A stretch of DNA of 64,000 bases, from positions 2,834 through 66,833 of the IMG/VR virus record IMGVR_UViG_3300044637_000586; one strand, written 5' to 3'. The stretch comes from a virus. A program made the translations under genes and the position numbers. The notes beneath the pieces were generated by a model. It searched no databases. It had not been told where the DNA came from and saw nothing but the letters and a program-made list of their open reading frames with translations. How positions within the stretch are numbered: position 1 is the first letter of the stretch; every line of letters starts with the position of its first letter. Positions 16,101 to 33,682 of the stretch are shown in pieces.

Positions 16101-17746
16101 AAATACAGGTCTGGGCTTGGTGAAACTGATGTATTCCTGAACGTATAGTCGATCGCCATCCTAGCCCCAACCGAGGTGGTTCCAGTATTTCTTAAACTGA
16201 GAAAAGAGTTGCGGTTTTCCCATATACCCGGACCTCCCGGATTAGGTAATGGACCATTTAACTCCAGTTCCAAAAGCGGCCTGTAGGTATCGGTGTTTCC
16301 AAAGATTTCAACAGTTGGGTTGGGTCGAGCGCCTGAGCCAAAATCCGAAAACACAGCCGTACCACCCTGCCCTAGGTTAGATGCCGAAAATGGTCTACGA
16401 GTATCTTGGTTCGCCGTACCGGATACCCCAAGAACGTATTCAGTTGACCCGTTTGTAGTTGTTATAACGGTATCTTCAACCAACAATCCACCAAGGTGAA
16501 ACAAAAATGGGTTAGCCGGGGTTTCGCCTGGCTCAGATCCGAATACGTGAAGTCCGTTCTCTACCGTGTAGACAGGAAGAGTGGCGAGTTCACCTAATCC
16601 GTTGATGTATTCTAGATCCGTACCCGCGCCAACAACACCTATGTCTCCAGAAATAGTTATGGGTGAATTGGAAACAGTAAACGCAGAAGGCATTGTAAGC
16701 CCTACAGAAACGACTGTCCCCGTGCCGGCGGTTGTATACTCAACGTGACCAGAGCCATCCAATGCAAGAACCATCCCCGCAGTAGCCGCGCCGTAGTTTG
16801 GCGTTATGATGTCAATGAATGAAGTTCCACTAATAGTTACCGCTCCAGGATCTATTTGCACAATTCCAATTGAGCCAGCGCCATCGTCTGCGGTGTAAGC
16901 CTGGTAACTTATTGAATCTATCGTGTATCTATTTACATTACCCCATGCAAAATTAAATCCACCTCCATCAACCGTGTTGTCTTGGGTGAGAAGCGAGCTG
17001 ATGTTCAACGTGTCTTGCCAGTCTTGAACTAGCGATCCACCGACGCTGGTTACGTCTACGCATAGGCTAGTGCCTTCTGGGAACTCGCCGGGACCATTCA
17101 ACAGCGCGGCATCGAACTGGGCGAATACCCCAGGGCCTCCGTCTGAGTAGTTGGAAAGTTGGTACACGCCGTATACGGTGGGGTCGGTCTTGCTGAACAC
17201 AAAGATCCACGAACCGTCTTGAATGATTGGCCAGAAACCACTAAAGTCTTGGTTGTTGGCCGTGAAGTTGTTCACTCGAATAACGCTACCGCCGGAATCG
17301 TACAGGAACGTGCCTGCGTCAGAGCCGTTTCCTGCGGTGTACTGTATAGAACACTCTGGCTCTGTATTACCGCACTCGCAGCACCCCTTGAATACAGATG
17401 TAACAAGAAGGCGATAGATCTCCTGCGTCTTGGCAGCGACTACATCAGACGTATCCAAAGACGTTAATGCAGTAAAGGTGTTTCCGCCAACGTCCGTAAT
17501 GCTATAAATCGTGAATGTAAAAGACTCCCCGGCTACTTGAGAGATTGTAATGGTGTCGTATCGGTACGAGATGTAAGCAGGGTTTTGAGTCATGATCTGG
17601 CTCATGCCCCGCACGTACTGATAAGGTGGCGTTAAGCCATACAGGAAAGACACGGTGTCGTTTCCCTCTACTTGTATTCGGGTGATCTCAGGTACACTAA
17701 CCGGAGTAGTCGCCCTAGTATTGTTAACCGCCTGTTTTGTAGCCAT
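13130..17746 (-). CDS. large modular tail fibre protein
   Basis: 1538 aa; repeated YTVNNGL...FQLGGPL and VGQVLTL...TTG modules; GTVVSVGLTMPSAFTVSNSPIT and HTFNLPTASATNRGALS fibre motifs. Confidence 0.75.
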   Translation of the reverse strand: MATKQAVNNTRATTPVSVPEITRIQVEGNDTVSFLYGLTPPYQYVRGMSQIMTQNPAYISYRYDTITISQVAGESFTFTIYSITDVGGNTFTALTSLDTSDVVAAKTQEIYRLLVTSVFKGCCECGNTEPECSIQYTAGNGSDAGTFLYDSGGSVIRVNNFTANNQDFSGFWPIIQDGSWIFVFSKTDPTVYGVYQLSNYSDGGPGVFAQFDAALLNGPGEFPEGTSLCVDVTSVGGSLVQDWQDTLNISSLLTQDNTVDGGGFNFAWGNVNRYTIDSISYQAYTADDGAGSIGIVQIDPGAVTISGTSFIDIITPNYGAATAGMVLALDGSGHVEYTTAGTGTVVSVGLTMPSAFTVSNSPITISGDIGVVGAGTDLEYINGLGELATLPVYTVENGLHVFGSEPGETPANPFLFHLGGLLVEDTVITTTNGSTEYVLGVSGTANQDTRRPFSASNLGQGGTAVFSDFGSGARPNPTVEIFGNTDTYRPLLELELNGPLPNPGGPGIWENRNSFLSLRNTGTTSVGARMAIDYTFRNTSVSPSPDLYLWPAVKLIAEATNVTENAETSNFSIRMFDGGSQQDKLLLEGNGQLTLNEYGAGTFIDNALTYVLAVDSTGQVWKKEAEGGGTVLEVDTEGLITGGPITTTGTITTSMATSRLVGRWDTGTGIMQEIVIGSGLTLTGDTLTADGGTGFDVQVNDTTIIPPATILNLKSGTDIDVVYEGSGAVRFDWAGTPSTQGLQDVIIEDNVLTQNNTIEGSLTSFVWKSNSFYEINPTVNYDPGTGTVPGYFKAFVGKYPPSYSELYVEAIYAQMKSQGATNQIVKVDTTGVYIPTPGLGSATVGQVLTLQNATTGQVEYQDAGGGTYTVNNGLIEDPTDNFQLGGPLVEDTTITGGTTPFSHSLSLSQLTQFNVTASNKSSIHIEPSGASEYAEMALTPTESSIEYSSLTTAYQASFTAQGATGDNSKAVMNASTPYGQVSVITEGNVTDGFNQLRIITPNVHIGSALVGQVLTLKSITGSGAGRVEFEDAVGATYTVNNGLSPDPSDPDIFQLGGPLIADTSISGDGNTYSLTFDDMDVLSGSSNFKIAFAVNDGTTTSSFALQPNIASIGCAVNGSGSASFAEFTDTQSRIGYLTPTQVVQFGADATGLYVLTPGVDAATATVGQVLTLINATTGESEWADGGGGGGGGRSYYLNGSINQGTFAGIAMKEMSPVPISGAGTNFVINADGYIASFITDAGDPNKVLIPAGNWNFELWFGANSGGGSPNFYVELSKYDTVGGTFTPIASGVGAPEGITGGAVVDLYFTALSVPQTTLALTDRLAVRVWVNHSGRTITLYTEDNRFSQVITSFPSGIASLNGLTAFAQSLAVGTAGTDFDISSSVATHTFNLPTASATNRGALSNTDWSRFDSFKTQTIGATVDGSGGVITAGIKGYVQIPYACTINSWRIITNTTANGTISFDIYRATSGIIPTASIIGGGVKPSLTSFGLTQTTASASLGTWTSTALAANDMLAFNVESGVTTFSWAILQLFVTKT

Positions 17747-18393
17747 TATTTACATTCTTCTTCTGTCGCGAAGGTACAAAATTCATCGAGACTTTTGTAT
17801 ATTTTCGCATACTTAGAAGAAGGGAACTTTTCACGCCACTCCATCTTGACTCGCGCCCACTCTGGCCCGGTACGTACAGGCTGCGCCCGCTTTTCTTCCT
17901 TAGCGCCCGAAAAGATAAAACTGATGACCGACTTCTTGCTAGGACGCCCGCCGTTCTTACGTTTGCTCTCTATCATTACCTTCACCTCGTCCAGCTTTTC
18001 ATGATTCGCGTCTTCAAGCAGTTCCACCAGTTGGCGGAGGGAAGCGCAACCCTCGAGCTTACCACGGGTTATCGTAACCTTCTCACGAACCGGCGGATCG
18101 CTGTCAAGAAATTTGATATCAAACCCAAGTTCACGCATAGCGAAGGTAAGGGAGAGAATGTCTGCCTTGATTTGCGCTGTTCCCCGATTGGGAACCGAGG
18201 GGTAAATTGCGGAGTGGGAGTCTGTGCGCCTGTCATCGTCTATCCATATTGATGTAATACTAATTGCATAGTCTGACTGTCCGCGATCAACCATGAGGAT
18301 TGCATCGGGGAACTTATCTTTTAACTCCTTAATTAGCGTTCTATATTCACCTAATTCATGCGGAGTTGGATCCGCTAGTTTCAATTCAATCAT
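17746..18393 (-). CDS. hypothetical protein
   Basis: Start moved to MIELKL (18393), downstream of a -7 box at 18410-18417; TAATG coupling to the fibre gene. Confidence 0.6.
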   Translation of the reverse strand: MIELKLADPTPHELGEYRTLIKELKDKFPDAILMVDRGQSDYAISITSIWIDDDRRTDSHSAIYPSVPNRGTAQIKADILSLTFAMRELGFDIKFLDSDPPVREKVTITRGKLEGCASLRQLVELLEDANHEKLDEVKVMIESKRKNGGRPSKKSVISFIFSGAKEEKRAQPVRTGPEWARVKMEWREKFPSSKYAKIYKSLDEFCTFATEEECK

Positions 18394-18418
18394 AACTTCG
18401 TTTGTGGTGCAAATATAC

Positions 18419-18452
18419 AAAAAAAGAACTCCCCAAGCCGATGCCCAGGGAG
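18419..18452 (-). terminator. intrinsic terminator
   Basis: CUCCCUGGGC-AUCG-GCUUGGGGAG-UUCUUUUUUU; three G-U pairs make it minus-strand specific. Confidence 0.8.
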
Positions 18453-18490
18453 ACCACACTAAACACTATATCTATACACCACTAAACCAG
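18419..18490 (-). ncRNA. candidate small RNA (~70 nt)
   Basis: TACCTTTG -7 box at 18495-18502, GU-rich body, then terminator. Confidence 0.4.
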
Positions 18491-18785: not shown

Positions 18786-21700
18786 TTACTTGGTTTCGAT
18801 TCCGTATTCTTCTCGCATTTTTTTTACGACTTCCTCCCTTCTTTGATACACCAGCCTGGCCCTGTCGTCATCATTCAGTTCGCCCAATTTTACATCCGGG
18901 AACGCCTTGAGCATCTGGCGTGAAAACTTATCCTTTACCGCCTTGATAGCATCCTGTCTAAATTCTTCCATCTTCTCAACCTTCTTATCATCACTCAGTC
19001 TTTCAAGCTGGCCTTTTCTCTTGTCGATAATGTCGGCTGTCTCAGCGTCTATTATGATTTTTAAAGATGGCTTGAAGTCTTCGCTCATCTCTACTCTTCT
19101 CTTGCCTGGAAGTCCTTCCCATTCTTCCGCGTCAAATCGGGTGTAGGCTTTTGGGAACCATTTCTTTTCCGTAAGACTGTAGTACGGACTCTTCTCAACG
19201 TGGCTTGTTCCGTCCTTCCATACGCTTTCAGGAACCAAGGCTTTAAGTATTGGGTTTGACGGCTTAACGTACACCGGCTGACCAAAGTGATCGTAAACAA
19301 GGCCTCCGTTAGTGTCCATGAAGATGTCTGTAAAGAAGATGTCGGAAACTATGTTGTCTACTACACCTACACGCTTCTCCTGCTGGATTCCTTTCCACGC
19401 CTCGTAGTCTTTTTTGAGGTTTTCCATCAAAGCAGGGGACAAAGATGTCTCTACCCCATCAAGAAGTAGTATCTCTCCTGCTTCTAAATACTTAGCCTCA
19501 CCAAAAGTAAACAGTTTCTTTGTGGCTCTTTTGATAGATGAATAATCGCTTCCGGAGATCTGAGATCCCACTAGACCAACAACTCTGTTGAATGTGATAT
19601 TCTTTTTGTCATCCTTACCAAAGCGAATATCGTTTGACACCTCCCCGAGTATCTTTCCTACTGCACCGGCCCCGAAACCAAGCAACGAAAGACTGATGTT
19701 CTTACCGAATACAGTCACGCTATTGGGCTCTGCTCCTTCGGCTTCCATTTCAGCCTTCTGATTTCCATCATCTGCTGATCCATAGAACTTAATCTGAGAG
19801 TTGGGATCAAGGGTCATTACGGTATCCCCCTCTTCGTCGTCCTCCCAGTCAAACATAGAAGAAATAACTCCCGCCCAAGCCGCAGTAACTATTGCGTTCT
19901 GGATCAGACGGCGGACCTTGTCCTCTCGTGTCATAGGAACTTCGATGTTCTTAGCGCCCACGTATCGTATGTTCTTGCCGTATGCTAATTTAGTCACGGC
20001 AGGCAACACGGGAAGAGCCTTATAAGAATACTCGGCCATGATTACAGACAGTCGCGCAAATCCGAATACAGCATTGAACACTGTTCTAGTGGACGCTGTA
20101 ACGACATTGTCCTTATCCTTGATGGCAAGCTTCTGCGTCAAGCCGTTATATACGAGCGCACCAAGTCTTGACTCCGGCTTTTGAAGCGCCAAAGACTTCT
20201 TAGCCTGGGAAGCCATTTCGTTCACCACTTCACTTGGCATGGCTGCGTGTATCTTCTCCCTCAATCGGCGCTTGGCCCATCCCTTGGGAAGAGCCTCGCC
20301 CATGTTCAATCTTTCTGTCGCCTCTTGAGCTACTTCTTGTTTGAGATCGGCTATTCTTTCCGGGCCTGTTTGCAAGAGCTCGTTCAACTGCTGATTCCAT
20401 ACGGCTGTGCCCTTCTTCATTTTAACACCCGACTCCTTGTTAATCACGTCAAGGTATCTTTCCGCCTCGATGTAGGTGTATATATCTTGGAGCATACCAC
20501 CCATGATTATATCCTGGGCCGACATCATAACCATACTGACTTCCGAAATTGCCGGCATGAACTTTCTCTTGCGGTATCCGGATCCCATGGCATGGCTAAA
20601 CGACTTCAATACAGCCTGGGCTATAAAGTAAGACTTTCTGCCGCCCTTAGCGCTTATGATATCGCTGAGTATCTTATCGTATTCCTTCTTGGTAACGCGA
20701 ACAACAGCTCCGGACGCTTTCTCCTCCGGACGCTCAAGCAGTGTGGTTTCTCCGAATCGAGACTCTGGACGCTGCCACTTTGCAAGCACCGTCTCCCAAC
20801 CCATGGTTGCGCCCTGCTTTTTCATCTTATTGGCAAACTGAATTGCCCTCTTCATCCTTGCGGGGTTCATAGCGAACGTAAACGCACCGTGTTGTATAGT
20901 GGAAACTATCGCTCCCAAACCGGAGGCTATGATGGCTGTCTTAAATAGATCGGACAGGGCGTTGATGTAGAACTGCTCGTTAAACCATCTTGCTACCAAC
21001 GCTGACGTGCTTTCATCGTATTCGTTTAGAATGTCGTTGATGTAGCGGTTGATCTGCTGATACAACTCTTCGCCTGGCTGTAGCTGCTGTAGTCTGTAGA
21101 AATATCCTTGCAGTGCTACTATGTCTCTTGCGGAAACCCCCTTGTACTCGAGAGCTTCCAAAAGAGCGTCTTCAAATTGAGTATCTGAAATCTCGCCCTT
21201 GCCTATTGCCTTGATGATGCTCTTTTTGACGTTATCGGAATCCTTGATCCCCTGCATGATATTGTCAATCTTCGCTTGATTCAGCTCTATCTTTTCTTGA
21301 ACCTTTGATTCAATAAGCGGCTGTACCTCTGCTTGCAAAGCTGATGCGTATGCCGGATCTACCCCAAGGTTTTCAACCAGTCTTTCAGCCAAGCTTTGCA
21401 CCTCCCCGCTAGGATCAGTGTAGTATTCAGAAGCAATGCGAGCAATCTCTGCGTCCATCTCTTCTTTACTTAGTGATTTTGCCACCGCCCGCTTCTCTAC
21501 ATTTCCGATCGGTATCTGCAACAAGTCCGAAACCAATGACTCGATTTCGTTTTTGATGTCCATTTTAGTGGCCGCGTCTGCATTTTCATTGGCGTCCACG
21601 TTGGCCATGGCTATGTTCTTGGCCTTTAAAACTATTGCTTCTACCTGATCTTTGTTGCTGAGAACAGCCTTGAGCCTGTCTTTCGCTTTTATCTTTTGCT

Positions 21701-22961
21701 TACGCTCTCTTGCCGCAATGTAGTCTGGATCATTCTGGAGGATAGTATCGGACAAAATCTTAACCGCTTTTTTAGCAGTACCGGTATCATCGAGCACCCC
21801 TTCAAATGCCTTAGACAGTCTCTTCGTTGCGCTTGCTTCTCGGTTCTTTTTTATCTCTTCGCTGAAATCGCCAATGTTCTCATCGATCACGGCATCAATC
21901 TTAGTTCTCTCGCCTGGGGCCAAGTCTTTGATTTGATTCCATACCCGGTTCTTTATGGCTTTGGCCGAGTATGCTCCTTCTTGTATGTATGACTTTGCAA
22001 GGTTTACAATGTGGGGTGTTATCTCTACTATCAAAGAATCGGAAAGAGACAAAGCCCCTGGAGCACGCTTCTTGGATAATATGTCTCGAATGGCACTTAT
22101 GCTGGCTTCCCTTTGTTTCTTGAACTCAGGCTTAACCGTAACCACCGTAGCTGTCTTCTTGACTTTCGGCATAGCCGAAGTAACAATAGCATCAGCCTCT
22201 TCTTTCGTTATCTTGGCTATTTCACGCAGTTGTGTGATCGCTTCGCCAATGGTCATTTGACCGGACGTAACCTGATTGAGGAATGAGTCTCTTGATTCGT
22301 CTTCCTCAAGTATTCGGTTCATCAATTCTTCAGGCGTAGACATAGCCGACAAAGCCGCGCTTGTCTTACCCGCTTCTGTTGCTGTTTCCGCCTTGGCCTG
22401 GTAGAATTTAGTTGAGTTTTTCTTATCTCCTTTTATGTAGAAATAAGTGGCTATCTTAGTCAGCATCACTTGATACTGATACGATAACCCGGGATTGTCA
22501 ATCTTCTCCTGCTCGGTGGTTTTCAGATAGGCCGTTAAAACATCATTGAATATGTTCTTTTCGTCGGCCTCGTACCTGTCCTTGAGAATATCAAACTTCT
22601 CCGTGGCCAAATTATCCATCGCTCTTTGATCGACAGATATGTACTCATCCACCTTTAAACCCCTTTGCTGGGCAACTCTTCTTCCGTATGCTCTTGTCTT
22701 TACGTCTCCATAAGCCTCACCAAGCCTTGACTTCATGAAGTCAGCCATTTCGCTCTTTGTTTCTTTGGGCTTTTTCTTGGCAGGCGTAGCAGTCTCGGCA
22801 AACGGATTGTCTCCTTTGAGGCTGTCTACATTGATTAATTCATCGGCTATCAATTTCTCCAGACCTCCGTTGTAAAGCATATCCATGTACTGCTCAAAGG
22901 TTTTCTCCTCCGCAGCAGTAGCGCCTGGCATCTTTATAGTTACCTTACAGGGTTTCGCCAT
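18786..22961 (-). CDS. large internal virion (ejection/cargo) protein
   Basis: 1391 aa, alpha-helical, single Cys at residue 5; last gene of the cargo cluster. Confidence 0.65.
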   Translation of the reverse strand: MAKPCKVTIKMPGATAAEEKTFEQYMDMLYNGGLEKLIADELINVDSLKGDNPFAETATPAKKKPKETKSEMADFMKSRLGEAYGDVKTRAYGRRVAQQRGLKVDEYISVDQRAMDNLATEKFDILKDRYEADEKNIFNDVLTAYLKTTEQEKIDNPGLSYQYQVMLTKIATYFYIKGDKKNSTKFYQAKAETATEAGKTSAALSAMSTPEELMNRILEEDESRDSFLNQVTSGQMTIGEAITQLREIAKITKEEADAIVTSAMPKVKKTATVVTVKPEFKKQREASISAIRDILSKKRAPGALSLSDSLIVEITPHIVNLAKSYIQEGAYSAKAIKNRVWNQIKDLAPGERTKIDAVIDENIGDFSEEIKKNREASATKRLSKAFEGVLDDTGTAKKAVKILSDTILQNDPDYIAARERKQKIKAKDRLKAVLSNKDQVEAIVLKAKNIAMANVDANENADAATKMDIKNEIESLVSDLLQIPIGNVEKRAVAKSLSKEEMDAEIARIASEYYTDPSGEVQSLAERLVENLGVDPAYASALQAEVQPLIESKVQEKIELNQAKIDNIMQGIKDSDNVKKSIIKAIGKGEISDTQFEDALLEALEYKGVSARDIVALQGYFYRLQQLQPGEELYQQINRYINDILNEYDESTSALVARWFNEQFYINALSDLFKTAIIASGLGAIVSTIQHGAFTFAMNPARMKRAIQFANKMKKQGATMGWETVLAKWQRPESRFGETTLLERPEEKASGAVVRVTKKEYDKILSDIISAKGGRKSYFIAQAVLKSFSHAMGSGYRKRKFMPAISEVSMVMMSAQDIIMGGMLQDIYTYIEAERYLDVINKESGVKMKKGTAVWNQQLNELLQTGPERIADLKQEVAQEATERLNMGEALPKGWAKRRLREKIHAAMPSEVVNEMASQAKKSLALQKPESRLGALVYNGLTQKLAIKDKDNVVTASTRTVFNAVFGFARLSVIMAEYSYKALPVLPAVTKLAYGKNIRYVGAKNIEVPMTREDKVRRLIQNAIVTAAWAGVISSMFDWEDDEEGDTVMTLDPNSQIKFYGSADDGNQKAEMEAEGAEPNSVTVFGKNISLSLLGFGAGAVGKILGEVSNDIRFGKDDKKNITFNRVVGLVGSQISGSDYSSIKRATKKLFTFGEAKYLEAGEILLLDGVETSLSPALMENLKKDYEAWKGIQQEKRVGVVDNIVSDIFFTDIFMDTNGGLVYDHFGQPVYVKPSNPILKALVPESVWKDGTSHVEKSPYYSLTEKKWFPKAYTRFDAEEWEGLPGKRRVEMSEDFKPSLKIIIDAETADIIDKRKGQLERLSDDKKVEKMEEFRQDAIKAVKDKFSRQMLKAFPDVKLGELNDDDRARLVYQRREEVVKKMREEYGIETK

Positions 22962-23452
22962 TAGAACAGTTTTTCTTCGAGAAGCAATAACTTGAACTTA
23001 TCCTTTCCGTCTACATCCTCAAGCAGGTTGAGCTTGTCGCTGTATTCCGCAACAGACTTGGTCTGTATCAATCGGAATTGCTGTAAGAAGTCAAACGTGC
23101 AAAGATCCATGTTGAAGAGTTTCTTAGACGTCTCTTCATACGCCTCGTACAAATCGTATTCGATCTTGTATGCCTCTTCCAATACCTCGAGAAGTCCGGA
23201 GAAGTCTACCTGCGGCTTGGGTACGGTAGGAAGCGGAACAGTGATGTTCCAGTCTACCAAATACTTTTCAATCTTAGCTGCGTGTTCGAGTTCGTCTTGA
23301 GACTCTGCTGCGAAGAACTCGGCAGCTTTGAAATACCCAACACCCTGGCACCAGTTGCTGGCGGCACGATAGAAGTAAAATGCATCCATCTCGTCCAAAT
23401 GACGTGGGGCTAATAGGTCTACTACACCTTTATCTAAACTATGAGGTTTCAT
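22961..23452 (-). CDS. ferritin (non-heme, FtnA-like)
   Basis: LDEMDAFYFY, ESQDELEH, KIEYD, IQTKS match four-helix ferroxidase ligands. Confidence 0.85.
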   Translation of the reverse strand: MKPHSLDKGVVDLLAPRHLDEMDAFYFYRAASNWCQGVGYFKAAEFFAAESQDELEHAAKIEKYLVDWNITVPLPTVPKPQVDFSGLLEVLEEAYKIEYDLYEAYEETSKKLFNMDLCTFDFLQQFRLIQTKSVAEYSDKLNLLEDVDGKDKFKLLLLEEKLF

Positions 23453-23458
23453 GTTTTA

Positions 23459-26400
23459 TTACGGGCAACCGTCAGTTTTGTTTGTTATCACACCCGCTTC
23501 TTGCAGGCGCTTATTAATCTTTGGAATATTGTCGTAAATATACTTCAGTTTTGGGTCACGCCCCAAAATTTCATCAATAGCATCCCTTGCTCCAGGTGTT
23601 TTATCCTTGAGTTTATAGTAGTTGTCAACCAACTCGCTTATGCTTGATTTGACCCCGGATGGTTTCTCTGCCTTAGGAGTTTTAGCTTTTGGCTGAGCCT
23701 TGGGCTGAACTTTGGGAGTTGCCCCAAATTCATCTTGCAGGATCTCGTCGAATTGCTCTTTAAGCTTAGATGTTAGTCCATTGTACCAATCTTGACCTCC
23801 AACTATGTTGTTTACAGCAACCTGTGGGCTTGTGCCGGACTGAATAGCTTGCTCGACAGCATCCGCTGCATTCTCCATCAAAGACTGAATCTCAGCATTT
23901 GTTCTTGGTGTAGGTTCACGCAGCTCGTTGGGGATCGAGTTAGTTCCGTATTCGGCCTGGGTTTCGTTTAGCTTGTTTTGATCAGCATACGACTCATAAT
24001 AACCTTTGACACCTTCGCTATCGCTATTTACAACTACATAGTCAAGAACTCTTATGCTAGCACTTTGCAACGATCTAGTCATCGGCTTTACGCCAGACTT
24101 GTATTGGTCTTGGTTAGAGTAAAATATAACTCCTGCCGCAGTTGCGGATTCACCAATGAAAGAAACGACTTCCTTATAGTCGAATCCTTTTTTGAAGATA
24201 TAATTACCTATTATCTGCCCGCTGTTGTTCAATAGCAACATACCATGTTTAGGTAGCGCGGTAAAACGAGTCTGCATCAAAAATGTGGATACATCCTGTG
24301 ATCCAGATATAGCCACAACCGGTTCGGACAAGATTTGTTGCTCGTCCATCACCTCGACTTTCAGATTCTTGTTGTATTCTTCTTGATACTCCTTATCTAT
24401 ATTGCGTTTTTTAACGATCGATAAGTCGTATGGCCATGTAAGATGAACATACTCTTTTTTGTATGTATCCATGATGACGTGTTCAACCTCGATGTCAAGA
24501 GGCTGAAGCATTTGTACTACGTCTTCAGTAAGTTTAATATCCGCGTTACTTGCCACCAAGGCTCCCGAAGGATGGTTGTGAACTAAATATACTTTTTTAG
24601 ATTTAAACTTTTTCACACCAGACAAAACAAGTCTTGGATCCACTACAGTGGCAGTCGGACCACCCATGCCCAGGAACTGAATGTGGGCCTTTCCGCTCTT
24701 ATCAACGTGTACAGCGAAGGCGTGCTCAACAGACTTGTCTTCAAGTTTACGCATGATGTGTGCTACATCTTCCGCATCCTTGACCTTGACACTTCCGTTA
24801 AACTTGATTTGCTTGTATTTGTTCCATACAGCCTTTACTGTATTACCGACTCCTCCATCTCGTACACTTTGCCCCCGTACTCCATCTGGCTCACTATACG
24901 GTATATTTCCGCTTTCGGATACAATCGGGCCGGCGGCTGTGTCTGTTCTTGTAAGTCCTTCGTTTGGTCCATCGGTTGTTTTGCTTTTTGTGGTTGTTAC
25001 AAATTTTTCAAAAGCCTCTAAATCTTGCTTAGTTCCAAGCTCAAATGTTTCATTCTTGATATAATAGGCTACCTCATCCATTCCGGAGTCTATGCCGACA
25101 ATAGCATCGGCCTTTTCTATTAAATCAACAATGTCTACGTCTTTTTCTACCCATAAATTTTCTATCTCAACATCTCTTCCAGTATTTTTTATGAGACCTT
25201 CATCCATCTCAATATCATAATCTCTTAGGTCGAGCAAATTCTCCGCGTTTACAACAACGGCTTTTCTTAGTGAGCCAAATGTTCTTGTATAATCTTTGTT
25301 GGGAGTGAAATACTTTCCTTTATCCCCCTGCGAACGATACCCCCTGTAAAGTATTTCTTTTACCTTGCTGTTGGGGAAAATGGTGTTTAGATAACTGGCG
25401 TATTGTTGTAGCGTGCCAATCTTTGATAATCCGGGAACAGAATAATAAAAGTCCTTTACATTTTGCCCCTCGTAACCTGCTTGGGGTTCTTGAGCTTCTT
25501 GCGTAGCTCCTTCAGATGGACTAATGCCATAACCGCCTTGTCTTCCTTGCTCAGGTTGTTCACGTTCAATTTCTTTGTAGAATTTTTCATAATCTTCTAT
25601 TGTTTTTACTTTTTCGTCTTCACTTAATGATTCATAGTATTCAATGAGTTCGTCTTCACTCAAGTTGCCCAAATCATTGTTTCTGATGGCATCTCTCATC
25701 TGTGACTCATACTCGTACTTAGCCGCCTCGTCCATGTCGTTAACCAGCTTGTTACGCATCTCGATGAGCTCGTCCTCCATTTGAGACTTGTTCTCAAAAG
25801 AAGCAAGCACGTCAAGAACCTCGTTGACAGCATCCTGTTCGTCAAGCACGATTCCGCCGAGCTCTGGTAAATCTTCAAGGGCGATCAGATCCACGCTTCG
25901 GCCATTGTCGGAAATAAAACCGACTTTCTTTGCAGCGGCTATTTCAGCTTTGCCGGCAAGTTCGGACTGGCTTGTCATTACCTTTCCGCCCCTCAAGAAA
26001 TAAAGAAGAATACTTGCCCTTAGACCAAGTAATGAGTCCTGGGCCATTGACTTCGCTTCCTTCAGATTGTCGTTACGCTCCTTGTTAAATTTGCGGTCAA
26101 CATCTCTTCTGGCTACGACTTTACCGCTTTCCTTGCTTGTCAGACTGATGTTTCCACCTTTTACATTGACAACTGTGAAGCCAAGCCTTTCCGCCTCGTC
26201 CTTAATTTGACTTAACAGATTAGCACCCATTGGCTTTCTGCTTTTGGGTATCTTGTTGTAACGATTCTTTTTGGTGATGAGCTCGTTTACGGCATCATTT
26301 GTAGTCTTTTTTAAATCAGAAGGAGGGTTCTCTAGGGTTTCCTGTATAAGTTTATCGGCATCATCTACAAGTTTCAATGATCCCGCCTCGTACTCCTCCA

Positions 26401-29400
26401 TGCCTTTCTTGACGAGATACGCCTGTATAGCCAAATCCTCCTCAGACATCTCCATGGGGCTTTCGTACCCCATTCTTTTTAAAACCTCGTCATTGATATG
26501 ATCCCATACCTGCTGTTTATCCGCAAGTATTTTCGATCCCTCTTCTATTTCCCTCTGTTCCACAGAAGATGGCTCTTCTTCGGCTTCTTCAATATCTGTT
26601 TCGGGAGCGAAATCCTTTATTAAAAATCCCCCGTTGTTTTCCGCGTTCCAATCACTCGTTGTGCCATCAGGCGATACTAACTTCCAAATAGATTTACTGG
26701 TATCTTCAATGGTGTATTCTTCGTATCTACCATTGTAGTTTCGATACACTATGTCGCCTTTTCCAAAATTACTTAAACGCTTTCCGTCCTTCTCGCTTGT
26801 CCGGTTAAGCATACTGTCAATTCTAAGGGCAAAGCTCGATGAGGCTCTATACGATTTGAATTTTTCAATTGAGTCAACAAATCCCTCTCCCATGTATTGA
26901 ATCTGGTTCTCAAGAAAATCAGCGACTTCCCTGGTGATTCCCTGCTCCTCAACCATCTTGTTAGCTGCGTACTCATACCCATCCCCGACTAGTGCATCAG
27001 GATTGTTCTTCCTAAACGTGTTGTAGTAATCAAACATTTGTTTGAACAGCCCGTAACTCTTTTCGTAATTCAAAGGTGGTACAGCCTCGAATCCCTCGTA
27101 TACATTTGCGAACTCTTCTATCCTGCCTTGCATGGCATTTTCAGTCAAGTTCTTTACTCTTGTGAAACCTTTTTTGCCAGGGCCTAAAACTTCATAATGA
27201 GGAGCCCAATCGTTTTCCCCTTTAATTATTTCACCTACCTTGAATTGATTGGCGCTTTTAAGTTTTTTCTCCTTGACCGGAGCGGGTGCTGATGGCGCTG
27301 TTTCTTCTTCCGTAGCAACTTTTCCCGCCTCTGGAAAGTATGATATTTCTTTGCCGGTTTCGTTCTTGTACTTATTATCAAAAAAGTTTATCTCCTCGCC
27401 TTCTGGAGTGACGACCCTTGTTCCTCCTCTCTTGTTTTCAAAAAACTCGGTTATTGTGTAGCCGTCATTTGTTTTCCAAGTGGCGAGTTTAAGATCATCA
27501 CGTTGAACACCGTTCTCTTTTTCAGCCCTGTCTATAAGAGCGTTTAGCTCTTTGTTCAAAGAAAAAGCCTCTCTTTCTGAAACCCTCTTACCGCCAAATC
27601 CTTTCTTGAACAGATTCTTGATGTTGGCAAATGGCTTTGCTTTTTGGGCCTGTGCGGGTTTTGTTTCCGTAGGTTCCGCCTCCGTTTCAAACAACGAAGC
27701 TATCTTGCCCTTTCGAGTTGGCTTTTCTTCAACGGGTTTTTCAGCTGGCTTTTCCTCGCCTTTAAACAAACCTGCAAGACGTTCCTTACGGCTTGGCTTG
27801 GCTGGCTCGGTCTTTTCAGGCAGGGCTGCCGGCTTGACTTCTTCAAACTCAGTCTCTATTCCCCCAACATCTTTTCTTGATTGATCAAGAGACTTTCGGT
27901 ATGATTCAAAGTCATATCCCGCAAGGCCGGCCGTGGCCTTTTCGTATTGGGCGGCAAGAGGTAATAACTTTTCAGGCAGCTCTTCTGCGTCAACGATCTC
28001 CCCGGTCTTGTTGTCCGTGATGATTATCTCGTTGTCGTAGTCCCAGTCAATGCTAAATCCATTGTTGCCAAACTCCATTTCAACATTAGCCATCTCATCT
28101 GTTATGGGCTTCATGTTGGCCTCGACTTCTTCCGGGGCGATTTCGGGAACTACTTCCTCTTGTGCTTGAAGAACTCCACTTGCTGGAGCCTCTTCTTTGC
28201 TTGGAGCTTCGACAGGTTTGGCTTCGACAGGTTCTTGCCCGACTCCGACTTCACCTGATACCCGGATTTGGTTTTCTTTATCATATTTTAATGAGTTTAG
28301 GTTTTCAAGCAGTTGTTTTGAATTGCCCTGCTGCCCCTCGCGTATCTGCAACGTCCTTCCGTCTTCCGTAGTGATGTTTACCGATACTATCTTGCCGTTC
28401 TTCTCTGCGTAATTATTAAGCGTAGCGTTCTTCCCGGCGTAGTTAATCGTTGCGCCCTTTTCAAGAGTAGGGGTAATAAGCGTGTTCTGATTCTCGATAT
28501 TCATCTCCCCGACGATTCCTTCGTCAGTCTCGATGCCCATCTCACGGATCTTTTCAGCAACTCCCTCTCCCTTTTCAATGATAACGCTTCTTCCGTTGTT
28601 GTATTCTATCTCGTAATCACCGTCCTCGTTGATAAAGAAACTAGCATACTCGTCACCCACCTTTACTCGCTGAGGTGTGGTAGATGTGCCTACCGACTTA
28701 GCATCAATACCATTTTCACCAAGCATCAGGATCTCTTCGCGCTCGTTCTTCAATCTTTCGATTTGAGCGTTAGTGATAGGGTCTTTAAGACCGCCTTCCT
28801 CCAGGGTTCTTATCTGTTGGGTTATACCGAATGCCCGAGCTTGCTTGGGGCGTGGGAGGTTTTTCCAGTTGGGATGAGCTGATAAAGCTTGGAAGTCTTC
28901 GCGAGGACCTTTCAAGTCCTGTTTCACCTTAGCCACGTCTGCGCTATTGGTTGATGCCGCGATTATGCCATCCGCATTTTCAGCGGCCTCAAGCATAACG
29001 TCTTCCGCAAAGTTGGAGGCTCCTACCGGTCTTCTAAAGAAATTACCCGCCTTACCGCCTATCAAACCACTCAGTGCGGCATCCTTATACCCACGGCCAG
29101 AATTTAAGTCCTTAAAGTATTCGGTTTCACCCAGGTAGTTGATAATCTCTTTGGTGGCATTATCAACCTTTTGCTGAGTAACTTCTTCGCCCGCTTCTTT
29201 CAATCCGGACTTGAGATATGATGCAGAAGATTCCGCAAAAGAATCCCTGAATGCTTGCGATAAACTTTTACCGTTTGCCAAATCATTCAGTACAGACTTT
29301 CTGAAAACGCTAGGCTCAAAGTATTTAACGTCAGGTATCAATCCTTCAGCCAATGACACGGCGATAGCGGTTGCTGTAGAAGCTGCCGCAGCTTGCCTTG

Positions 29401-31309
29401 GAGACATCTTGTGGGTATTGATGGCTTCCTCGTATGCGTCAGCTTCTGTTACAAGCCATGACGTTGCGAACGTAGCCCCATACTGAGCCATCTTAGATGC
29501 CCCTGCAAACGTGCCGCCTAAGGCGAATGTGGCAAGTGAAGCCAGCGCGTTACCTCCTAGCGAGGTCAAGTATTGGATGTTTGATTCTGATTCAATCGTC
29601 GGGAAGTCTACCCTCTTTTCCATGCGGTAGTTTTCCAGTCCGTCATAAATCTCGTCAAGGAAGTTGTATTCAGTATTCCCGGTCACAAGATCTTCAACTA
29701 TCTTGGGTATTTCCAAGACGTTGATGGCCATGTTTCCGATCCCGGCGGCAAACGTATTTGCAAGTTCGCCCGGGGCGTATATCATCTTCATCATCGGAGA
29801 AGCGTTGTCCCACCTCTGCTTTCCAGCCTCCTGCTCCTTCTCGATTCGATCCTTTAATGTCTTGTATTCGGAATAGTAATTTATGTTATCCTGGTTTAAA
29901 GCACCAAGTACCTTGAGTGATAAAGCGGACTGACCAAGAGAGTTATACGCAGTCTTAGCCTGATCAAGCTTAGCTACGTTCTCGTCGGTCATCCTTGAAC
30001 GAACCTTGAGGTCTTCGTAGTCAGATTGTAACTTGTTGCTACGCTCTTGTAGCTTGCTGAAATCTGGGTAGTTCGCCCTGTATGCGTTGTATTCGTCCTT
30101 ATACTCTTGGCTGATTCTATTGAACTCAGCCTCGTAGTCCTCACGCTTCATGGTGGAGGACTTCGCATTCAGATCCTGGATGGCCTTATTAAATTCAGCA
30201 TCTCTTTGATTCCATGAAGCGAACGACTCCTTTGCCTTTTGCTCGAGTCTCTTGTATTCGGCATCTATCGCTGAACGCTCTTGATTCAACGCGATAACCC
30301 CGGCGTCAAACAGGCGGGAGTCAATTGAAGCCTCTATCTTAGAATATTCGTTGATTCCTGACTTTTGCTTGTCGTAGTTCCTCTTGATTGCGGCCATCTT
30401 CAACTGAATAGCCCTGGTCTCCATAGAGTTTAACCACTCTTCGTTCTTGGCGCTTCTGTCTGTGCTTGACTTTAGTTGAGAGTATTTATTAAACTCAGCC
30501 TCACCTATTTCGGGTCTCGTCTTCTTCATGTAGTCGAAATAGTCGTCCATCAAAGCGGAAACCATCTCGCCTCTCTTGCCTTCTTTCTCAATAGTGGTTC
30601 CGTTGGGAACCTCTCTTTCACCAAGAGCAATTTGAAGATCCGTTAAATCAGTCGGGGCAACAGTAAAGTATGGGAAAAACTTATCCGACTTGTTGCCGGC
30701 ATTGTTCATGTAGCTGTCTATCTCCTCGCCAAACTGAGCTTCGTATTCATTGGCTATCCTCTTATCTATATCCTCTTTTGTCAGAATGTTTACACCCTGA
30801 TCCTCAAGAGCCTTTTGACTTTTCTCAAACGCGGCCTGGTTGACCTTTTTAATAGCTTCCTCTGATGCGAAATCAGTTCCCTTTTCTTTGGATACAGAAG
30901 CCAACGGGGATTGAACGAATTTACCCTGCTCTATTTTCTTCTCGACTTCTTTTATAGCCTTAATAGGCTGAGGAATCTGCGCCTGTGTTGTCTCAGACGG
31001 CATCTCCTCTCTACGAAACGTAATGTCCTGCTGCTTCTTTTGGGGCTCTTTCTTCACCCCTTTCATTACCGGCTCCCCGCTAACGAGGGTTTCGGTCATT
31101 ACTTTCTGGCCAAAACTCGGCGCAGAAGGCTTTGTAGGCTGCCCTTGAGGCGAACCAGAAACGGGTTGCCCACCCCCTTTTTTTTTTAACCCAGAGATAA
31201 ACGCGTCGCGAAACTTGCGAAGATCATCTTTGCTTGCGCCAGTGCCTGCGTATTTAACAAGCCCTTGTTTTAGCTTTTCTTTTTCGTCCGGAGTTAATCC
31301 TACTGGCAT
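23459..31309 (-). CDS. giant polyvalent ejection/cargo protein with ART-like and RadC/JAB domains
   Basis: 2616 aa; LYRG..YFT..E ART-like segment; VHNHPSG...SNAD JAB motif; Gly/Ala hydrophobic segments near aa 580-660. Confidence 0.75.
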   Translation of the reverse strand: MPVGLTPDEKEKLKQGLVKYAGTGASKDDLRKFRDAFISGLKKKGGGQPVSGSPQGQPTKPSAPSFGQKVMTETLVSGEPVMKGVKKEPQKKQQDITFRREEMPSETTQAQIPQPIKAIKEVEKKIEQGKFVQSPLASVSKEKGTDFASEEAIKKVNQAAFEKSQKALEDQGVNILTKEDIDKRIANEYEAQFGEEIDSYMNNAGNKSDKFFPYFTVAPTDLTDLQIALGEREVPNGTTIEKEGKRGEMVSALMDDYFDYMKKTRPEIGEAEFNKYSQLKSSTDRSAKNEEWLNSMETRAIQLKMAAIKRNYDKQKSGINEYSKIEASIDSRLFDAGVIALNQERSAIDAEYKRLEQKAKESFASWNQRDAEFNKAIQDLNAKSSTMKREDYEAEFNRISQEYKDEYNAYRANYPDFSKLQERSNKLQSDYEDLKVRSRMTDENVAKLDQAKTAYNSLGQSALSLKVLGALNQDNINYYSEYKTLKDRIEKEQEAGKQRWDNASPMMKMIYAPGELANTFAAGIGNMAINVLEIPKIVEDLVTGNTEYNFLDEIYDGLENYRMEKRVDFPTIESESNIQYLTSLGGNALASLATFALGGTFAGASKMAQYGATFATSWLVTEADAYEEAINTHKMSPRQAAAASTATAIAVSLAEGLIPDVKYFEPSVFRKSVLNDLANGKSLSQAFRDSFAESSASYLKSGLKEAGEEVTQQKVDNATKEIINYLGETEYFKDLNSGRGYKDAALSGLIGGKAGNFFRRPVGASNFAEDVMLEAAENADGIIAASTNSADVAKVKQDLKGPREDFQALSAHPNWKNLPRPKQARAFGITQQIRTLEEGGLKDPITNAQIERLKNEREEILMLGENGIDAKSVGTSTTPQRVKVGDEYASFFINEDGDYEIEYNNGRSVIIEKGEGVAEKIREMGIETDEGIVGEMNIENQNTLITPTLEKGATINYAGKNATLNNYAEKNGKIVSVNITTEDGRTLQIREGQQGNSKQLLENLNSLKYDKENQIRVSGEVGVGQEPVEAKPVEAPSKEEAPASGVLQAQEEVVPEIAPEEVEANMKPITDEMANVEMEFGNNGFSIDWDYDNEIIITDNKTGEIVDAEELPEKLLPLAAQYEKATAGLAGYDFESYRKSLDQSRKDVGGIETEFEEVKPAALPEKTEPAKPSRKERLAGLFKGEEKPAEKPVEEKPTRKGKIASLFETEAEPTETKPAQAQKAKPFANIKNLFKKGFGGKRVSEREAFSLNKELNALIDRAEKENGVQRDDLKLATWKTNDGYTITEFFENKRGGTRVVTPEGEEINFFDNKYKNETGKEISYFPEAGKVATEEETAPSAPAPVKEKKLKSANQFKVGEIIKGENDWAPHYEVLGPGKKGFTRVKNLTENAMQGRIEEFANVYEGFEAVPPLNYEKSYGLFKQMFDYYNTFRKNNPDALVGDGYEYAANKMVEEQGITREVADFLENQIQYMGEGFVDSIEKFKSYRASSSFALRIDSMLNRTSEKDGKRLSNFGKGDIVYRNYNGRYEEYTIEDTSKSIWKLVSPDGTTSDWNAENNGGFLIKDFAPETDIEEAEEEPSSVEQREIEEGSKILADKQQVWDHINDEVLKRMGYESPMEMSEEDLAIQAYLVKKGMEEYEAGSLKLVDDADKLIQETLENPPSDLKKTTNDAVNELITKKNRYNKIPKSRKPMGANLLSQIKDEAERLGFTVVNVKGGNISLTSKESGKVVARRDVDRKFNKERNDNLKEAKSMAQDSLLGLRASILLYFLRGGKVMTSQSELAGKAEIAAAKKVGFISDNGRSVDLIALEDLPELGGIVLDEQDAVNEVLDVLASFENKSQMEDELIEMRNKLVNDMDEAAKYEYESQMRDAIRNNDLGNLSEDELIEYYESLSEDEKVKTIEDYEKFYKEIEREQPEQGRQGGYGISPSEGATQEAQEPQAGYEGQNVKDFYYSVPGLSKIGTLQQYASYLNTIFPNSKVKEILYRGYRSQGDKGKYFTPNKDYTRTFGSLRKAVVVNAENLLDLRDYDIEMDEGLIKNTGRDVEIENLWVEKDVDIVDLIEKADAIVGIDSGMDEVAYYIKNETFELGTKQDLEAFEKFVTTTKSKTTDGPNEGLTRTDTAAGPIVSESGNIPYSEPDGVRGQSVRDGGVGNTVKAVWNKYKQIKFNGSVKVKDAEDVAHIMRKLEDKSVEHAFAVHVDKSGKAHIQFLGMGGPTATVVDPRLVLSGVKKFKSKKVYLVHNHPSGALVASNADIKLTEDVVQMLQPLDIEVEHVIMDTYKKEYVHLTWPYDLSIVKKRNIDKEYQEEYNKNLKVEVMDEQQILSEPVVAISGSQDVSTFLMQTRFTALPKHGMLLLNNSGQIIGNYIFKKGFDYKEVVSFIGESATAAGVIFYSNQDQYKSGVKPMTRSLQSASIRVLDYVVVNSDSEGVKGYYESYADQNKLNETQAEYGTNSIPNELREPTPRTNAEIQSLMENAADAVEQAIQSGTSPQVAVNNIVGGQDWYNGLTSKLKEQFDEILQDEFGATPKVQPKAQPKAKTPKAEKPSGVKSSISELVDNYYKLKDKTPGARDAIDEILGRDPKLKYIYDNIPKINKRLQEAGVITNKTDGCP
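24835..24972 (-). CDS. nested +1-frame ORF, 45 aa
   Basis: MDQTKDLQEQTQPPARLYPKAEIYRIVSQMEYGGKVYEMEESVIQ; A-rich leader ACAAAAAGCAAAACAACCG-ATG. Confidence 0.45.
   Translation of the reverse strand: MDQTKDLQEQTQPPARLYPKAEIYRIVSQMEYGGKVYEMEESVIQ
25456..25590 (-). CDS. nested +1-frame ORF, 44 aa, basic helical
   Basis: MKNSTKKLNVNNLSKEDKAVMALVHLKELRKKLKNPKQVTRGKM; leader AAAAACAATAGAAGATT-ATG. Confidence 0.5.
   Translation of the reverse strand: MKNSTKKLNVNNLSKEDKAVMALVHLKELRKKLKNPKQVTRGKM
28150..28284 (-). CDS. nested +1-frame ORF, 44 aa, small basic phage protein
   Basis: MIKKTKSGYQVKSESGKNLSKPNLSKLQAKKRLQQVEFFKHKRK; leader AAACCTAAACTCATTAAAAT-ATG; resembles a stand-alone small phage protein family as I recall it. 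Confidence 0.7.
   Translation of the reverse strand: MIKKTKSGYQVKSESGKNLSKPNLSKLQAKKRLQQVEFFKHKRK
31173..31187 (-). other. A10G5 slippery run (candidate frameshift or transcriptional slippage site)
   Basis: TTA AAA AAA AAA GGG GG at codons 41-46 of the giant gene. Confidence 0.5.
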
Positions 31310-31312
31310 ATC

Positions 31313-32617
31313 TTACTGTTTATAAAGTTCTTTGAGCATTTCATTAGCCGCATCTTCGGGCGTTTGGCCGCCGCTTGAAGTGCCGGTAGACACCGATCCG
31401 TTTCTAGTTTCAAACTCTACCCTTGGATCGAATCCGTCCAAATATGATTTAAACTTTGGCTTGTTGTCTTCATAGCTAACCCATATTTCTTTTGGCTCGC
31501 CTGTTGCCTCGTCCAAAACAGGATCTCCCACACTGTCGAGCTCGTACCCTATTACGCTTACGTCGCCATTTTGAGCGTAAAAAAATCCGGTAGGTTTAAA
31601 TACAGGTATTGATCTATAGCCGTTTGTTTGCCCTCCCGCGATTCCGCTTAGTGGCGCCAACTCCTGATTATTTTTCGTAATTGCCATTCGGTTAAACCCA
31701 GGAGCAAAATATTCAATCGGCGCTCCTTCTTCAACTTCTATTGACAAGTCTCCCCATTTACCGCTTCCGTATTTAGGAGTGTCGTCTTTCTTTTTGGTTG
31801 TTGTACCGCTTTTTGTAACCGGCTTAGGCTTGCCTGGATTCATGTCGGTAAACATTGACGTAGCTTCTTCGTACAACTTAACATCGTCGTTTCCGTATCT
31901 TGGTAACAAGGCTTCATGGTCACCCATGCCCACCTGGTCTTTGAAGTATATACCCAAAAGGTTCTTGAACTTTTCGGGATCCTTCTTGATCATGGTTCTG
32001 CCATTAACTTTGATTTCCTCCTCCTCCATCAAGTCATCTATCTTCTCAACTACATCAACTAGATTCACGTTGTTTTTAAAGATGCTGTTTGATTGAGCGT
32101 ATCGAAGTCTTTCCTCCGGGGTAATGTCGTCGCGCATAAACTCCTGAGCCCATGTAGCTGCGTGGCCTTGGTCGTATTTAGTTGGGTTCTTGTCTACCTC
32201 AGGCTTGTCTTTCTCCCAAATCTTCGCGTTTACTTTGGCTGCGTTTGTCTGTCTTTTGATTTCGCGAACCATTTCATCAACTTTCTTTTGCTCATCCAGC
32301 GGTAAATTTCGAGGATCTATTTTGGGATTGAGCTTCAACTTCTTCATGTACTCTTTGTACTCAGTTACTTTTTCTTGAATCTTGGGCAAGTCAACATTCC
32401 ATACGTCTGGATCCTCCATATTGAAGTCTTGCCATGCCTGCATCTTGGCTTGCTGGTCCTTCTTCCTTTCAGCCTCGTATGAACGGATGTCCTGTAAACC
32501 CTGGTTTACTATGTTCAAGGTTTCTCCTAACCCCTCTGAATACGCCGCGCCACGGTTAGACCCTGGCATATCTCCGGCGGCCCCTGTATAGACTATTGCT
32601 GCGCTTGGTACTCCCAT
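31313..32617 (-). CDS. internal virion/ejection protein
   Basis: 434 aa, Cys-free, between the pilot-like and giant cargo genes. Confidence 0.6.
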   Translation of the reverse strand: MGVPSAAIVYTGAAGDMPGSNRGAAYSEGLGETLNIVNQGLQDIRSYEAERKKDQQAKMQAWQDFNMEDPDVWNVDLPKIQEKVTEYKEYMKKLKLNPKIDPRNLPLDEQKKVDEMVREIKRQTNAAKVNAKIWEKDKPEVDKNPTKYDQGHAATWAQEFMRDDITPEERLRYAQSNSIFKNNVNLVDVVEKIDDLMEEEEIKVNGRTMIKKDPEKFKNLLGIYFKDQVGMGDHEALLPRYGNDDVKLYEEATSMFTDMNPGKPKPVTKSGTTTKKKDDTPKYGSGKWGDLSIEVEEGAPIEYFAPGFNRMAITKNNQELAPLSGIAGGQTNGYRSIPVFKPTGFFYAQNGDVSVIGYELDSVGDPVLDEATGEPKEIWVSYEDNKPKFKSYLDGFDPRVEFETRNGSVSTGTSSGGQTPEDAANEMLKELYKQ

Positions 32618-33671: not shown

Positions 33672-33682
33672 TAGTGGCAAAT

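Follow-up and report, generated by a model that had tools for sequence, protein, structure and literature searches.

The stretch of DNA considered here, called the window throughout, comprises 64,000 nucleotides (positions 2,834 to 66,833) of the IMG/VR record IMGVR_UViG_3300044637_000586, a complete virus record of 66.8 kb which it covers nearly in full. Its late operon, on the minus strand, contains two very large genes whose products, designated p2616 (23459-31309) and p1391 (18786-22961) after their lengths in residues, each possess a single cysteine (Cys) situated at one end. Judging from the open reading frames (ORFs) and Cys counts, p2616 is presumably a giant multi-domain virion cargo protein of the "polyvalent" type and p1391 a second large cargo protein. 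Two smaller presumed ejection proteins encoded upstream on the same strand, p434 (31313-32617) and p205 (32629-33246), have no Cys at all, and the four proteins together contain two Cys in 4646 residues.

The single Cys of p2616 is its penultimate residue (2615 of 2616, in ..TDGCP) and that of p1391 is residue 5 (MAKPCK..). The former is specified on the minus strand by the TGC codon at 23467-23465, followed by CCG and the TAA stop at 23461-23459, and the latter by TGT at 22949-22947, three codons (GCG, AAA and CCC) after the ATG at 22961-22959. An initial annotation of this DNA had pointed out these two Cys in about 4,650 residues, and its counts and codon coordinates are exact. It also described them as placed head-to-tail. 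The genes, however, are not direct neighbours: a ferritin-like gene of 163 residues, which had been overlooked, lies between them (22961-23452, minus strand).

Such scarcity of Cys is far from the norm for this genome. The other ORFs chosen in the window contain 190 Cys in 15233 residues (1.25 %), a rate at which 58 would be expected in the cargo set (binomial P(≤2) 8e-23). Even at the Cys rate of the two large structural proteins of the window, p1538 and p1470 (0.46–0.48 %), about 22 would be expected. The chance that two lone Cys fall within the last two of 2616 and the first five of 1391 residues is about 3e-6.

The late operon runs from the large terminase (48453-50915, minus strand; phrog_6681, 4.6e-39) and the portal (45992-48388, minus strand; phrog_6547, 6.3e-54) through other structural genes to p1470, a virion structural protein of 1470 residues (33683-38095, minus strand), and continues with an acetyltransferase-like ORF, p205, p434, p2616, the 163-residue ORF and p1391; tail-fibre-like genes follow 3′ of p1391. 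Cys depletion is a known property of ejected proteins, which argues that p205, p434, p2616 and p1391 belong to this class, and they are most likely internal virion proteins. No homology to the characterized ejection proteins (T7 gp14-16, P22 gp7/20/16, N4 gp50-52) was found, and the likeness is confined to the series of sizes (205, 434, giant), the place of the genes and the composition. p205, p434 and p1391 have no PHROG family match, Pfam returned nothing for these three except a sub-threshold match for p434, and p1391 had no match in a tblastn search of 50,697 phage records. In p2616 the sole domain that could be named is a RadC-like JAB domain at residues 2177-2281 (PF04002, E 2.7e-17). 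p205 has an N-terminal hydrophobic segment, and p1391 a single hydrophobic segment at residues 668-686. The large terminase is closest (24–25 %) to those of Flavobacterium, Cellulophaga and Maribacter podophages, not to those of crassviruses, and the virus is probably a podovirus of Bacteroidota hosts.

Conservation of the terminal cysteines in the family

A search with p1391 yielded 18 proteins. Of these, 16 are full-length, and in every one the sole Cys is residue 5, even in three with no more than 25–26 % identity to p1391; the remaining two matches are truncated at the N-terminus and have none; Cys5 is invariant in the alignment (A1). Relatives of p2616 were searched for with its C-terminal 467 residues, which gave 93 giants of 1484-4541 residues with a pooled Cys content of 0.086 % of 267,236 residues. 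A Cys is present within the last four residues in 52 of the 93, and 44 end in GCP. The terminal Cys is the only one in 47 of these proteins, 16 have none, and 74 have at most three; many giants have 0-3 Cys in 3000-5000 residues. C2615 is invariant in an alignment of 37 rows (A3). Giants with other Cys-containing ends also exist, namely ..NCKWG (P0029, P0036, P0038), ..QNCKL (P0044), ..KNKC (P0042) and ..EGDCV (P0025), and three giants have an N-terminal Cys only (P0034, P0043, P0051). Scans of viral and metagenome contigs for P0029 recovered only other, Cys-free lineages. Relatives of the p2616 region carry the Pfam families PF18760, PF18798 and PF18857, which we take to belong to the polyvalent-protein domain set, as well as others.

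Both genes are visible in 13 loci (the window, L001-L010, L012 and L093), and all 13 have kept both Cys. One is at the C-terminal end of the giant, which terminates in ..GCP or ..NCP; the other is at residue 5 or 6 of the large protein that follows, which starts with MA(K/N/A)PCK or MAKNPCK. The variants occur together: ..TDGCP is found with MAKPCKVTIK and ..TENCP with MANPCKITFK. This paired retention, which the initial annotation had proposed as a check, contrasts with the divergence of the remainder of the proteins. The last 60 residues of p2616 (23462-23641, minus strand) form a conserved module with a median identity to relatives of 73 %, compared to 22 % for the body of the protein. Likewise, residues 1-55 of p1391 (22797-22961, minus strand) are 60–75 % identical in P0016-P0018, whose remainder is 20–21 % identical. 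The bodies of the family proteins are shuffled and have diverged to about 20 % identity, while their ends persist.

The two ORFs upstream of the giant can be seen in 80 related loci and nearly always lack Cys; the equivalents of p205 in relatives are also Cys-free. Flavobacterium phage elemoA can serve as a natural control for the paired terminal Cys: it has the gene layout of the window, Cys-free equivalents of p434 (gp22) and p205, and one giant of 3694 residues, after which there is no cargo gene, and this giant has no Cys. At another locus (L099:4547-22471) an ORF of at least 5975 codons, which runs off the end of the locus, is also devoid of Cys, as are the ORFs of 207 and 632 residues that come before it.

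The gene between the two giants encodes a ferritin-like protein (Pfam Ferritin, PF00210, E 1.3e-19). Its best match in the PDB is the bacterial non-haem ferritin 5c6f (E 1.7e-13), and an AlphaFold2 model consists of four long helices and a short fifth one, with a modest mean predicted local distance difference test score (pLDDT) of 64.6. The stop codon of the ORF overlaps the ATG of p1391. A ferritin-like gene separates the two cargo genes in 13 of the 13 family loci and has been inherited as one block with both terminal Cys modules; across eight loci the protein is 74–97 % identical and its two Cys, at residues 35 and 118, are invariant (8 rows). Cys35 aligns, as read by eye, with a Cys of bacterial ferritin. 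With the ferroxidase ligand positions of E. coli FtnA as a guide, the alignment to 5c6f suggests that E21, E54, H57, E98 and Q130 may be kept and that the glutamate cluster of the second site is replaced by I, T, K and S.

Terminal cysteines in the cargo proteins of crAss-like phages

Matched terminal Cys in nearly Cys-free adjacent giants, as the feature is defined here, are found not only in the window but also in crAss-like phages (crassviruses). In Cellulophaga phage phi14:2 three adjacent virion proteins totalling 5398 residues contain four Cys in all: the last residue of g067 (1797 residues), Cys3 and the penultimate residue of g066, the virion RNA polymerase (vRNAP, 2180 residues), and Cys3 of g065 (1421 residues). 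In crAss001 the only Cys of gp47 is two positions ahead of the final residue. Three Cys are present in gp50, namely Cys5, Cys1334 and one eight positions ahead of the final residue, and gp49 has a single Cys5. The same terminal-Cys scheme is seen in DAC15. A further locus, L021, which was found through the RadC region, encodes a protein of 1832 residues whose single Cys is its last residue, then one of 2571 residues with Cys5, a penultimate Cys and seven internal Cys, and a third of 1917 residues with Cys3. Comparison by blastp and phmmer with a set of upstream, polymerase and downstream proteins of crassviruses (UP/RNAP/DN) detected no homology for p1391, a domain match of about 150 residues only for p2616, and no vRNAP (two-barrel, DFDxD motif) among the window proteins.

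The extent of the pattern was surveyed in 80 IMG/VR loci encoding a crass virion RNA polymerase, of which 57 remained after removal of 10 with fragmented ORFs and 13 duplicates with identical termini. At the junction between the polymerase and the downstream protein both Cys are present in 46 of 50 cases, neither in two, where the polymerase ORF is interrupted, and the C-terminal one only in two, one of which (L155) is due to a miscalled start codon (M17-AKKC). The junction between the upstream protein and the polymerase has both Cys in 14 of 16 cases. Among 252,970 pooled residues, 131 of the 214 Cys lie within the first eight or last ten residues of a protein, i.e., a frequency of 5.9 % versus 0.033 % elsewhere, or a roughly 180-fold terminal enrichment. 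The immediate contexts of the terminal Cys vary widely over the lineages (..NKKC, ..LKCK, ..TDGCP and ..LEDC at C-termini; MSCF, MACK and MAKPC at N-termini).

The distribution is also polar. An N-terminal Cys is absent from the protein that opens a series (0 of 12 loci), proteins in the middle have a Cys at both ends, and the protein that closes it seldom has a C-terminal Cys (4 of 47 loci). In each of these four a further large ORF downstream (the next one, or in L124 the next but one) has a Cys at residue 4-7 and would provide a fourth link. Counted per module, terminal Cys are even in number in the window, L021, phi14:2, crAss001, DAC15 and crAss002. At least four settings that differ in their motifs show the pattern: the family of the window, L021, the trio of crassviruses and the four-protein series.

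Gene fusions offer a second view of the same junctions. With the fused form defined as a polymerase ORF of at least 3000 residues, the 48 complete crass polymerase ORFs comprise 21 fused and 27 split ones. Among 19 fused ORFs that were tested, the N-terminal half shows homology to the upstream protein in 12 and the C-terminal half to the polymerase in all 19. An N-terminal Cys is present in all 27 split polymerases and in none of the 21 fused ones, and none of the 21 ORFs that lie upstream of a fused polymerase has a C-terminal Cys. The C-terminal Cys of the fused ORFs is kept in 21 of 21, and five fusions have one Cys each in 3068-5322 residues. A different kind of fusion is represented by crAss002 gp33 (4245 residues; L105:9270-22007), which combines gp50-like and gp49-like parts, i.e., polymerase and downstream protein. 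It has no Cys from residue 2141 to 3118, a region that spans the fusion point, and its probable true start, M33-S-C, pairs with the penultimate Cys of gp32. In a quick FastTree phylogeny of the polymerase core there are three changes between the fused and split forms, two of them on well-supported branches, and the Cys state follows each. Joint loss of the two Cys on fusion was another check put forward with the initial annotation, and both kinds of crass fusion lack Cys at the fused junction. Among the homologues found in the window family there was no fused, longer p1391, an absence that is weak evidence.

Two observations concern the gene models themselves. In L124 and L127 the RNA-polymerase ORF is interrupted mid-way with no Cys at the break, for which an intron, recoding of the stop or an error in the sequence could each be the cause. 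The annotated or first-ATG starts of crAss002 gp33 and of the L155 downstream ORF seem to be too far upstream, and the Cys motif may help to place start codons.

A possible end-to-end link between cargo proteins

The simplest account is the one already offered with the initial annotation, in which the two terminal Cys would form an intermolecular disulfide or metal bridge. We consider it reasonably probable, from the sequences, that the C-terminal end of p2616 and the N-terminal end of p1391 are joined by a redox-cleavable link. The presumed internal virion proteins have been purged of Cys, as are known ejection proteins, and a matched terminal pair survives. The conserved terminal modules of p2616 and p1391 probably dock on each other before oxidation, which would most plausibly occur after the particle has left the reducing cytoplasm and would create one intermolecular disulfide. 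The result would be an unbranched chain of about 4000 residues, still able to pass the portal-tail channel as an unfolded thread with its order and its 1:1 ratio fixed; reduction in the host cytoplasm would then free both proteins. Since the Cys are at the extreme ends, the chain would not branch, and no other topology with cross-links could still pass along a narrow channel; the purge of all other Cys would prevent wrong links. In functional terms such a link would amount to a gene fusion, with the disulfide in place of the peptide bond, and the virion RNA-polymerase cargo proteins of crAss-like phages would use the same device with unrelated sequences.

Docking of the termini was addressed by co-folding residues 2470-2616 of p2616 with residues 1-110 of p1391, using the two window sequences without alignments, which lowers the power of the prediction. 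The score was 0.43 compared to 0.02 for the best of three controls, at least 76 % of contacts agreed between runs and the partner pLDDT was at least 53. Of 78 solved complexes 51 attain the mark for a pass, as do 2 of 108 mismatched pairs; with scores up to 0.60, only 5 of the 78 do so, along with all four passing mismatches (of 180). The co-fold, which had also been proposed at the outset, thus lends weak support to a contact between the two modules. Taken together, the three computational checks suggested earlier (paired retention, loss on fusion and co-folding) favour the reading in which the ends are linked.

Several points weigh against this reading. The cytoplasm in which virions assemble is reducing and the bond would have to form later, and gut crassviruses live without oxygen. 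That p2616 and p1391 are packaged in the virion at all is itself suggested by gene position, Cys depletion and analogy. The co-fold pass is one of the weak kind, in which wrong guesses outnumber right ones unless the pairing was probable from the start. A conserved ferritin-like gene with two invariant Cys stands between the genes whose products would be linked. The contrast between fused and split forms at the first junction amounts to 2-3 independent changes, too few for significance in a sign test, and loss of Cys on fusion is also expected if the Cys functions only at a free end. L093-L096 encode a giant with Cys5 near the N-terminus (MAKGC..), and no upstream protein there ends in Cys. 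In this sub-lineage (L093:1-6614) the giant is split: the only Cys of the upstream piece is in ..KVEVKCPP.., 289 residues before the end, the pieces are separated by a gene of 475 residues that has a CxxC pair, and the downstream piece starts with MAKGC. The upstream Cys of L108 lies 31 residues ahead of the last residue, the terminal Cys of L133 are odd in number and several crass proteins retain internal Cys (C1334 in crAss001 gp50, three in DAC15 gp076).

Each terminal Cys might alternatively act on its own, as an anchor or packaging tag that bonds to the capsid interior, the portal, the ferritin-like protein or another copy of the same protein (C-to-C or N-to-N). The unpaired Cys5 of the L093 type and the odd count in L133 fit such a role, the terminal modules are conserved in the manner of packaging signals, and the loss of both Cys on fusion follows equally well if they function at free ends. 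Independent action nevertheless makes the polarity of the series hard to explain: first proteins lack an N-terminal Cys, the few last proteins with a C-terminal one are each followed by a protein that starts with a Cys, those in the middle carry both and the counts per module are even. The weak co-fold support for a contact between the modules points the same way. The polarity and even counts are why a chain is preferred over free-end roles, and we regard independent action as rather unlikely. Alternatively, the terminal Cys may link nothing and be docking or recognition motifs, sites of another modification or leftovers that are harmless to threading. Passage through the periplasm has been published as the reason for Cys suppression (PMC11445570), and protein ends might be exempt from this; moreover, the only Cys of T7 gp14 is residue 2, with none in gp15 and gp16. 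Tolerance, however, predicts scattered Cys rather than a fixed position in 16 of 16 p1391 homologues, the 37 rows of A3 and the 44 of 93 GCP ends, and neither the terminal enrichment in crassviruses nor the matched presence and absence in neighbouring genes would be predicted, all of which makes this explanation improbable.

A linkage through a shared metal ion (zinc or iron) or other reversible thiol chemistry would retain the chain and change the bond, and the ferritin-like protein could then supply or handle the metal. Its gene is exactly between the two others in 13 of 13 loci and is inherited with the terminal modules, and the reducing cytoplasm in which assembly takes place would allow a metal site to form, but not a disulfide. 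Yet crassviruses and L021 have the pattern without a ferritin gene, and Cys35 of the ferritin-like protein looks inherited rather than specific to this context, as it aligns with the Cys of bacterial ferritin. A disulfide is favoured over a metal site because only Cys is common to the lineages, the neighbouring residues vary and there is no recurrent histidine, aspartate or second Cys; a metal link therefore seems unlikely to us. The ferritin Cys35 and Cys118 were also considered as direct partners of the terminal Cys and not adopted, given that Cys35 is shared with bacterial ferritin and that the pattern exists in crassviruses and L021 in the absence of the gene. Chance combined with shared descent, i.e., the frozen accident of one lineage, is very improbable. 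Many of the loci are indeed related to each other and the fused and split forms represent few independent events, but the pattern is found again in proteins with no detectable homology to those of the window and, under different motifs, in at least four settings, and the placement of two lone Cys as in the window has the low probability already given. Two further candidates were rejected: a lipoprotein-type N-terminal Cys, as no hydrophobic signal segment precedes Cys5, and an intein or splicing-type junction, as Pfam and PHROG show no such domain and the N-terminal Cys occupies one of residues 2-7 rather than residue 1.

In its general form, the linked-ends proposal is that many podoviruses of Bacteroidota, including the abundant crAss-like phages of the human gut, build a "protein train" of separately translated giants. 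These would be coupled C-end to N-end in gene order by single disulfides, would leave the capsid as a single unbranched thread with up to four links and would be uncoupled in the reducing cytoplasm of the host; in evolution, fusion and fission of genes would exchange this coupling for a peptide bond and back again. Whether this extension holds we regard as evenly balanced. For crassviruses it is an open question how a narrow tail can pass megadaltons of protein in the correct order and proportions. If true, a conserved end-to-end covalent coupling would be a concrete and testable mechanism that sets both, and it would explain the alternation of fused and split gene forms. Giant ORFs with Cys only at matched ends would provide a signature for ejected cargo and its order in uncultured phages. 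The pattern is clean and widespread, includes the main phages of the human gut and can be tested in phages that are in culture.

Known systems and neighbouring genes

The closest parallels to the window proteins are the ejection proteins of podoviruses (Schitoviridae gp71-73/N4 gp50-52, T7, P22), which are housed in the head, leave it by way of the tail and are likewise large, encoded downstream of the structural genes and nearly Cys-free. In the paper on phage DEV, Cys is described as suppressed in the Schitoviridae ejection operon, with 0.00075 % in gp71 homologues versus 0.865 % proteome-wide; suppression is noted for N4 gp50 as well, and passage through the periplasm and its disulfide-forming enzymes are cited as the selection against Cys (PMC11445570). 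By our own counts, T7 gp15 has no Cys in 747 residues, gp16 none in 1318 and gp14 one, at residue 2 (L101), and P22 gp7, gp20 and gp16 have none. Together with the counts for crAss001, this bears out the general statement of the initial annotation that ejection proteins are poor in Cys. The papers on ejection proteins describe, in their available parts, the absence of Cys and no rule for terminal ones, and a review of the subject (PMC8954989) makes no mention of cysteine, disulfide or Cys; the window family, in contrast, keeps a matched pair at the ends.

The vRNAP cargo trio of crassviruses (phi14:2 gp67/gp66/gp65; crAss001 gp47/gp50/gp49) resembles the window proteins as a set of adjacent giants whose only, or nearly only, Cys are at matched ends. 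The window differs in genome size (66.8 kb versus about 100 kb), in having no detectable vRNAP and in the ferritin-like gene that intervenes. According to Bayfield 2023 (PMC10172136), the crass cargo proteins are ejected partly unfolded; the word cysteine does not appear there and disulfides are mentioned for tail parts only. Drobysheva et al. report in a preprint that the three proteins are present in virions and that in some phages they form one fused polyprotein; the main text of this preprint version mentions neither Cys nor disulfides.

As for p2616, it shares with the polyvalent proteins of Iyer et al. 2017 (PMC5512222) its size, its multi-domain character, a RadC-like JAB domain and a phage with portal and terminase. 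In the window an effector-type domain is present in a giant, and portal and terminase are encoded upstream on the same strand. Polyvalent proteins are predicted to be packaged in the capsid and delivered with the DNA, according to that source, which does not mention cysteine or disulfide; Cys depletion and a C-terminal Cys module, both features of the window, are not included in their description.

Disulfides are known from virions, e.g., between tail hub and ring proteins of crAss001 (PMC10172136) and between the rings of a siphovirus tail tube (PMC13576161). These bonds rivet static parts of the shell, whereas the bond proposed for the cargo would concatenate mobile proteins and would have to break in order to work.

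In two-chain (A-B) toxins a single interchain disulfide holds the chains together until they have been translocated, when it is reduced in the cytosol. By analogy, the logic of the proposed link would be the same, i.e., one disulfide across a membrane barrier and cytosolic reduction that frees the chains. Toxin chains, however, are cut from one precursor and not joined end-to-end, and there is no relation in sequence or machinery to the window proteins. Cys-free ejection proteins, virion disulfides and disulfide-linked toxin chains are thus known, and it is the matched terminal Cys that seem to be new: no description of such pairs was found in full-text literature searches, whose scope excluded supplements and subscription journals, and priority elsewhere is possible.

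Finally, three neighbours of the cargo genes have Cys of their own. The acetyltransferase-like ORF (147 residues; 33237-33680, minus strand; phrog_1249, E 1.8e-5), located between p1470 and the Cys-free block, contains four; Flavobacterium phage elemoA has a gene of 141 residues at the equivalent position. The next gene after p1391 encodes 237 residues (17746-18459, minus strand), with a penultimate Cys and another eight residues earlier, and its relatives of 215-217 residues mostly share both (206 and 214 of 215). Further on, the tail-fibre-like protein p1538 (1538 residues; 13130-17746, minus strand) has a CCxC..C cluster at residues 122-132 that is conserved among its relatives.

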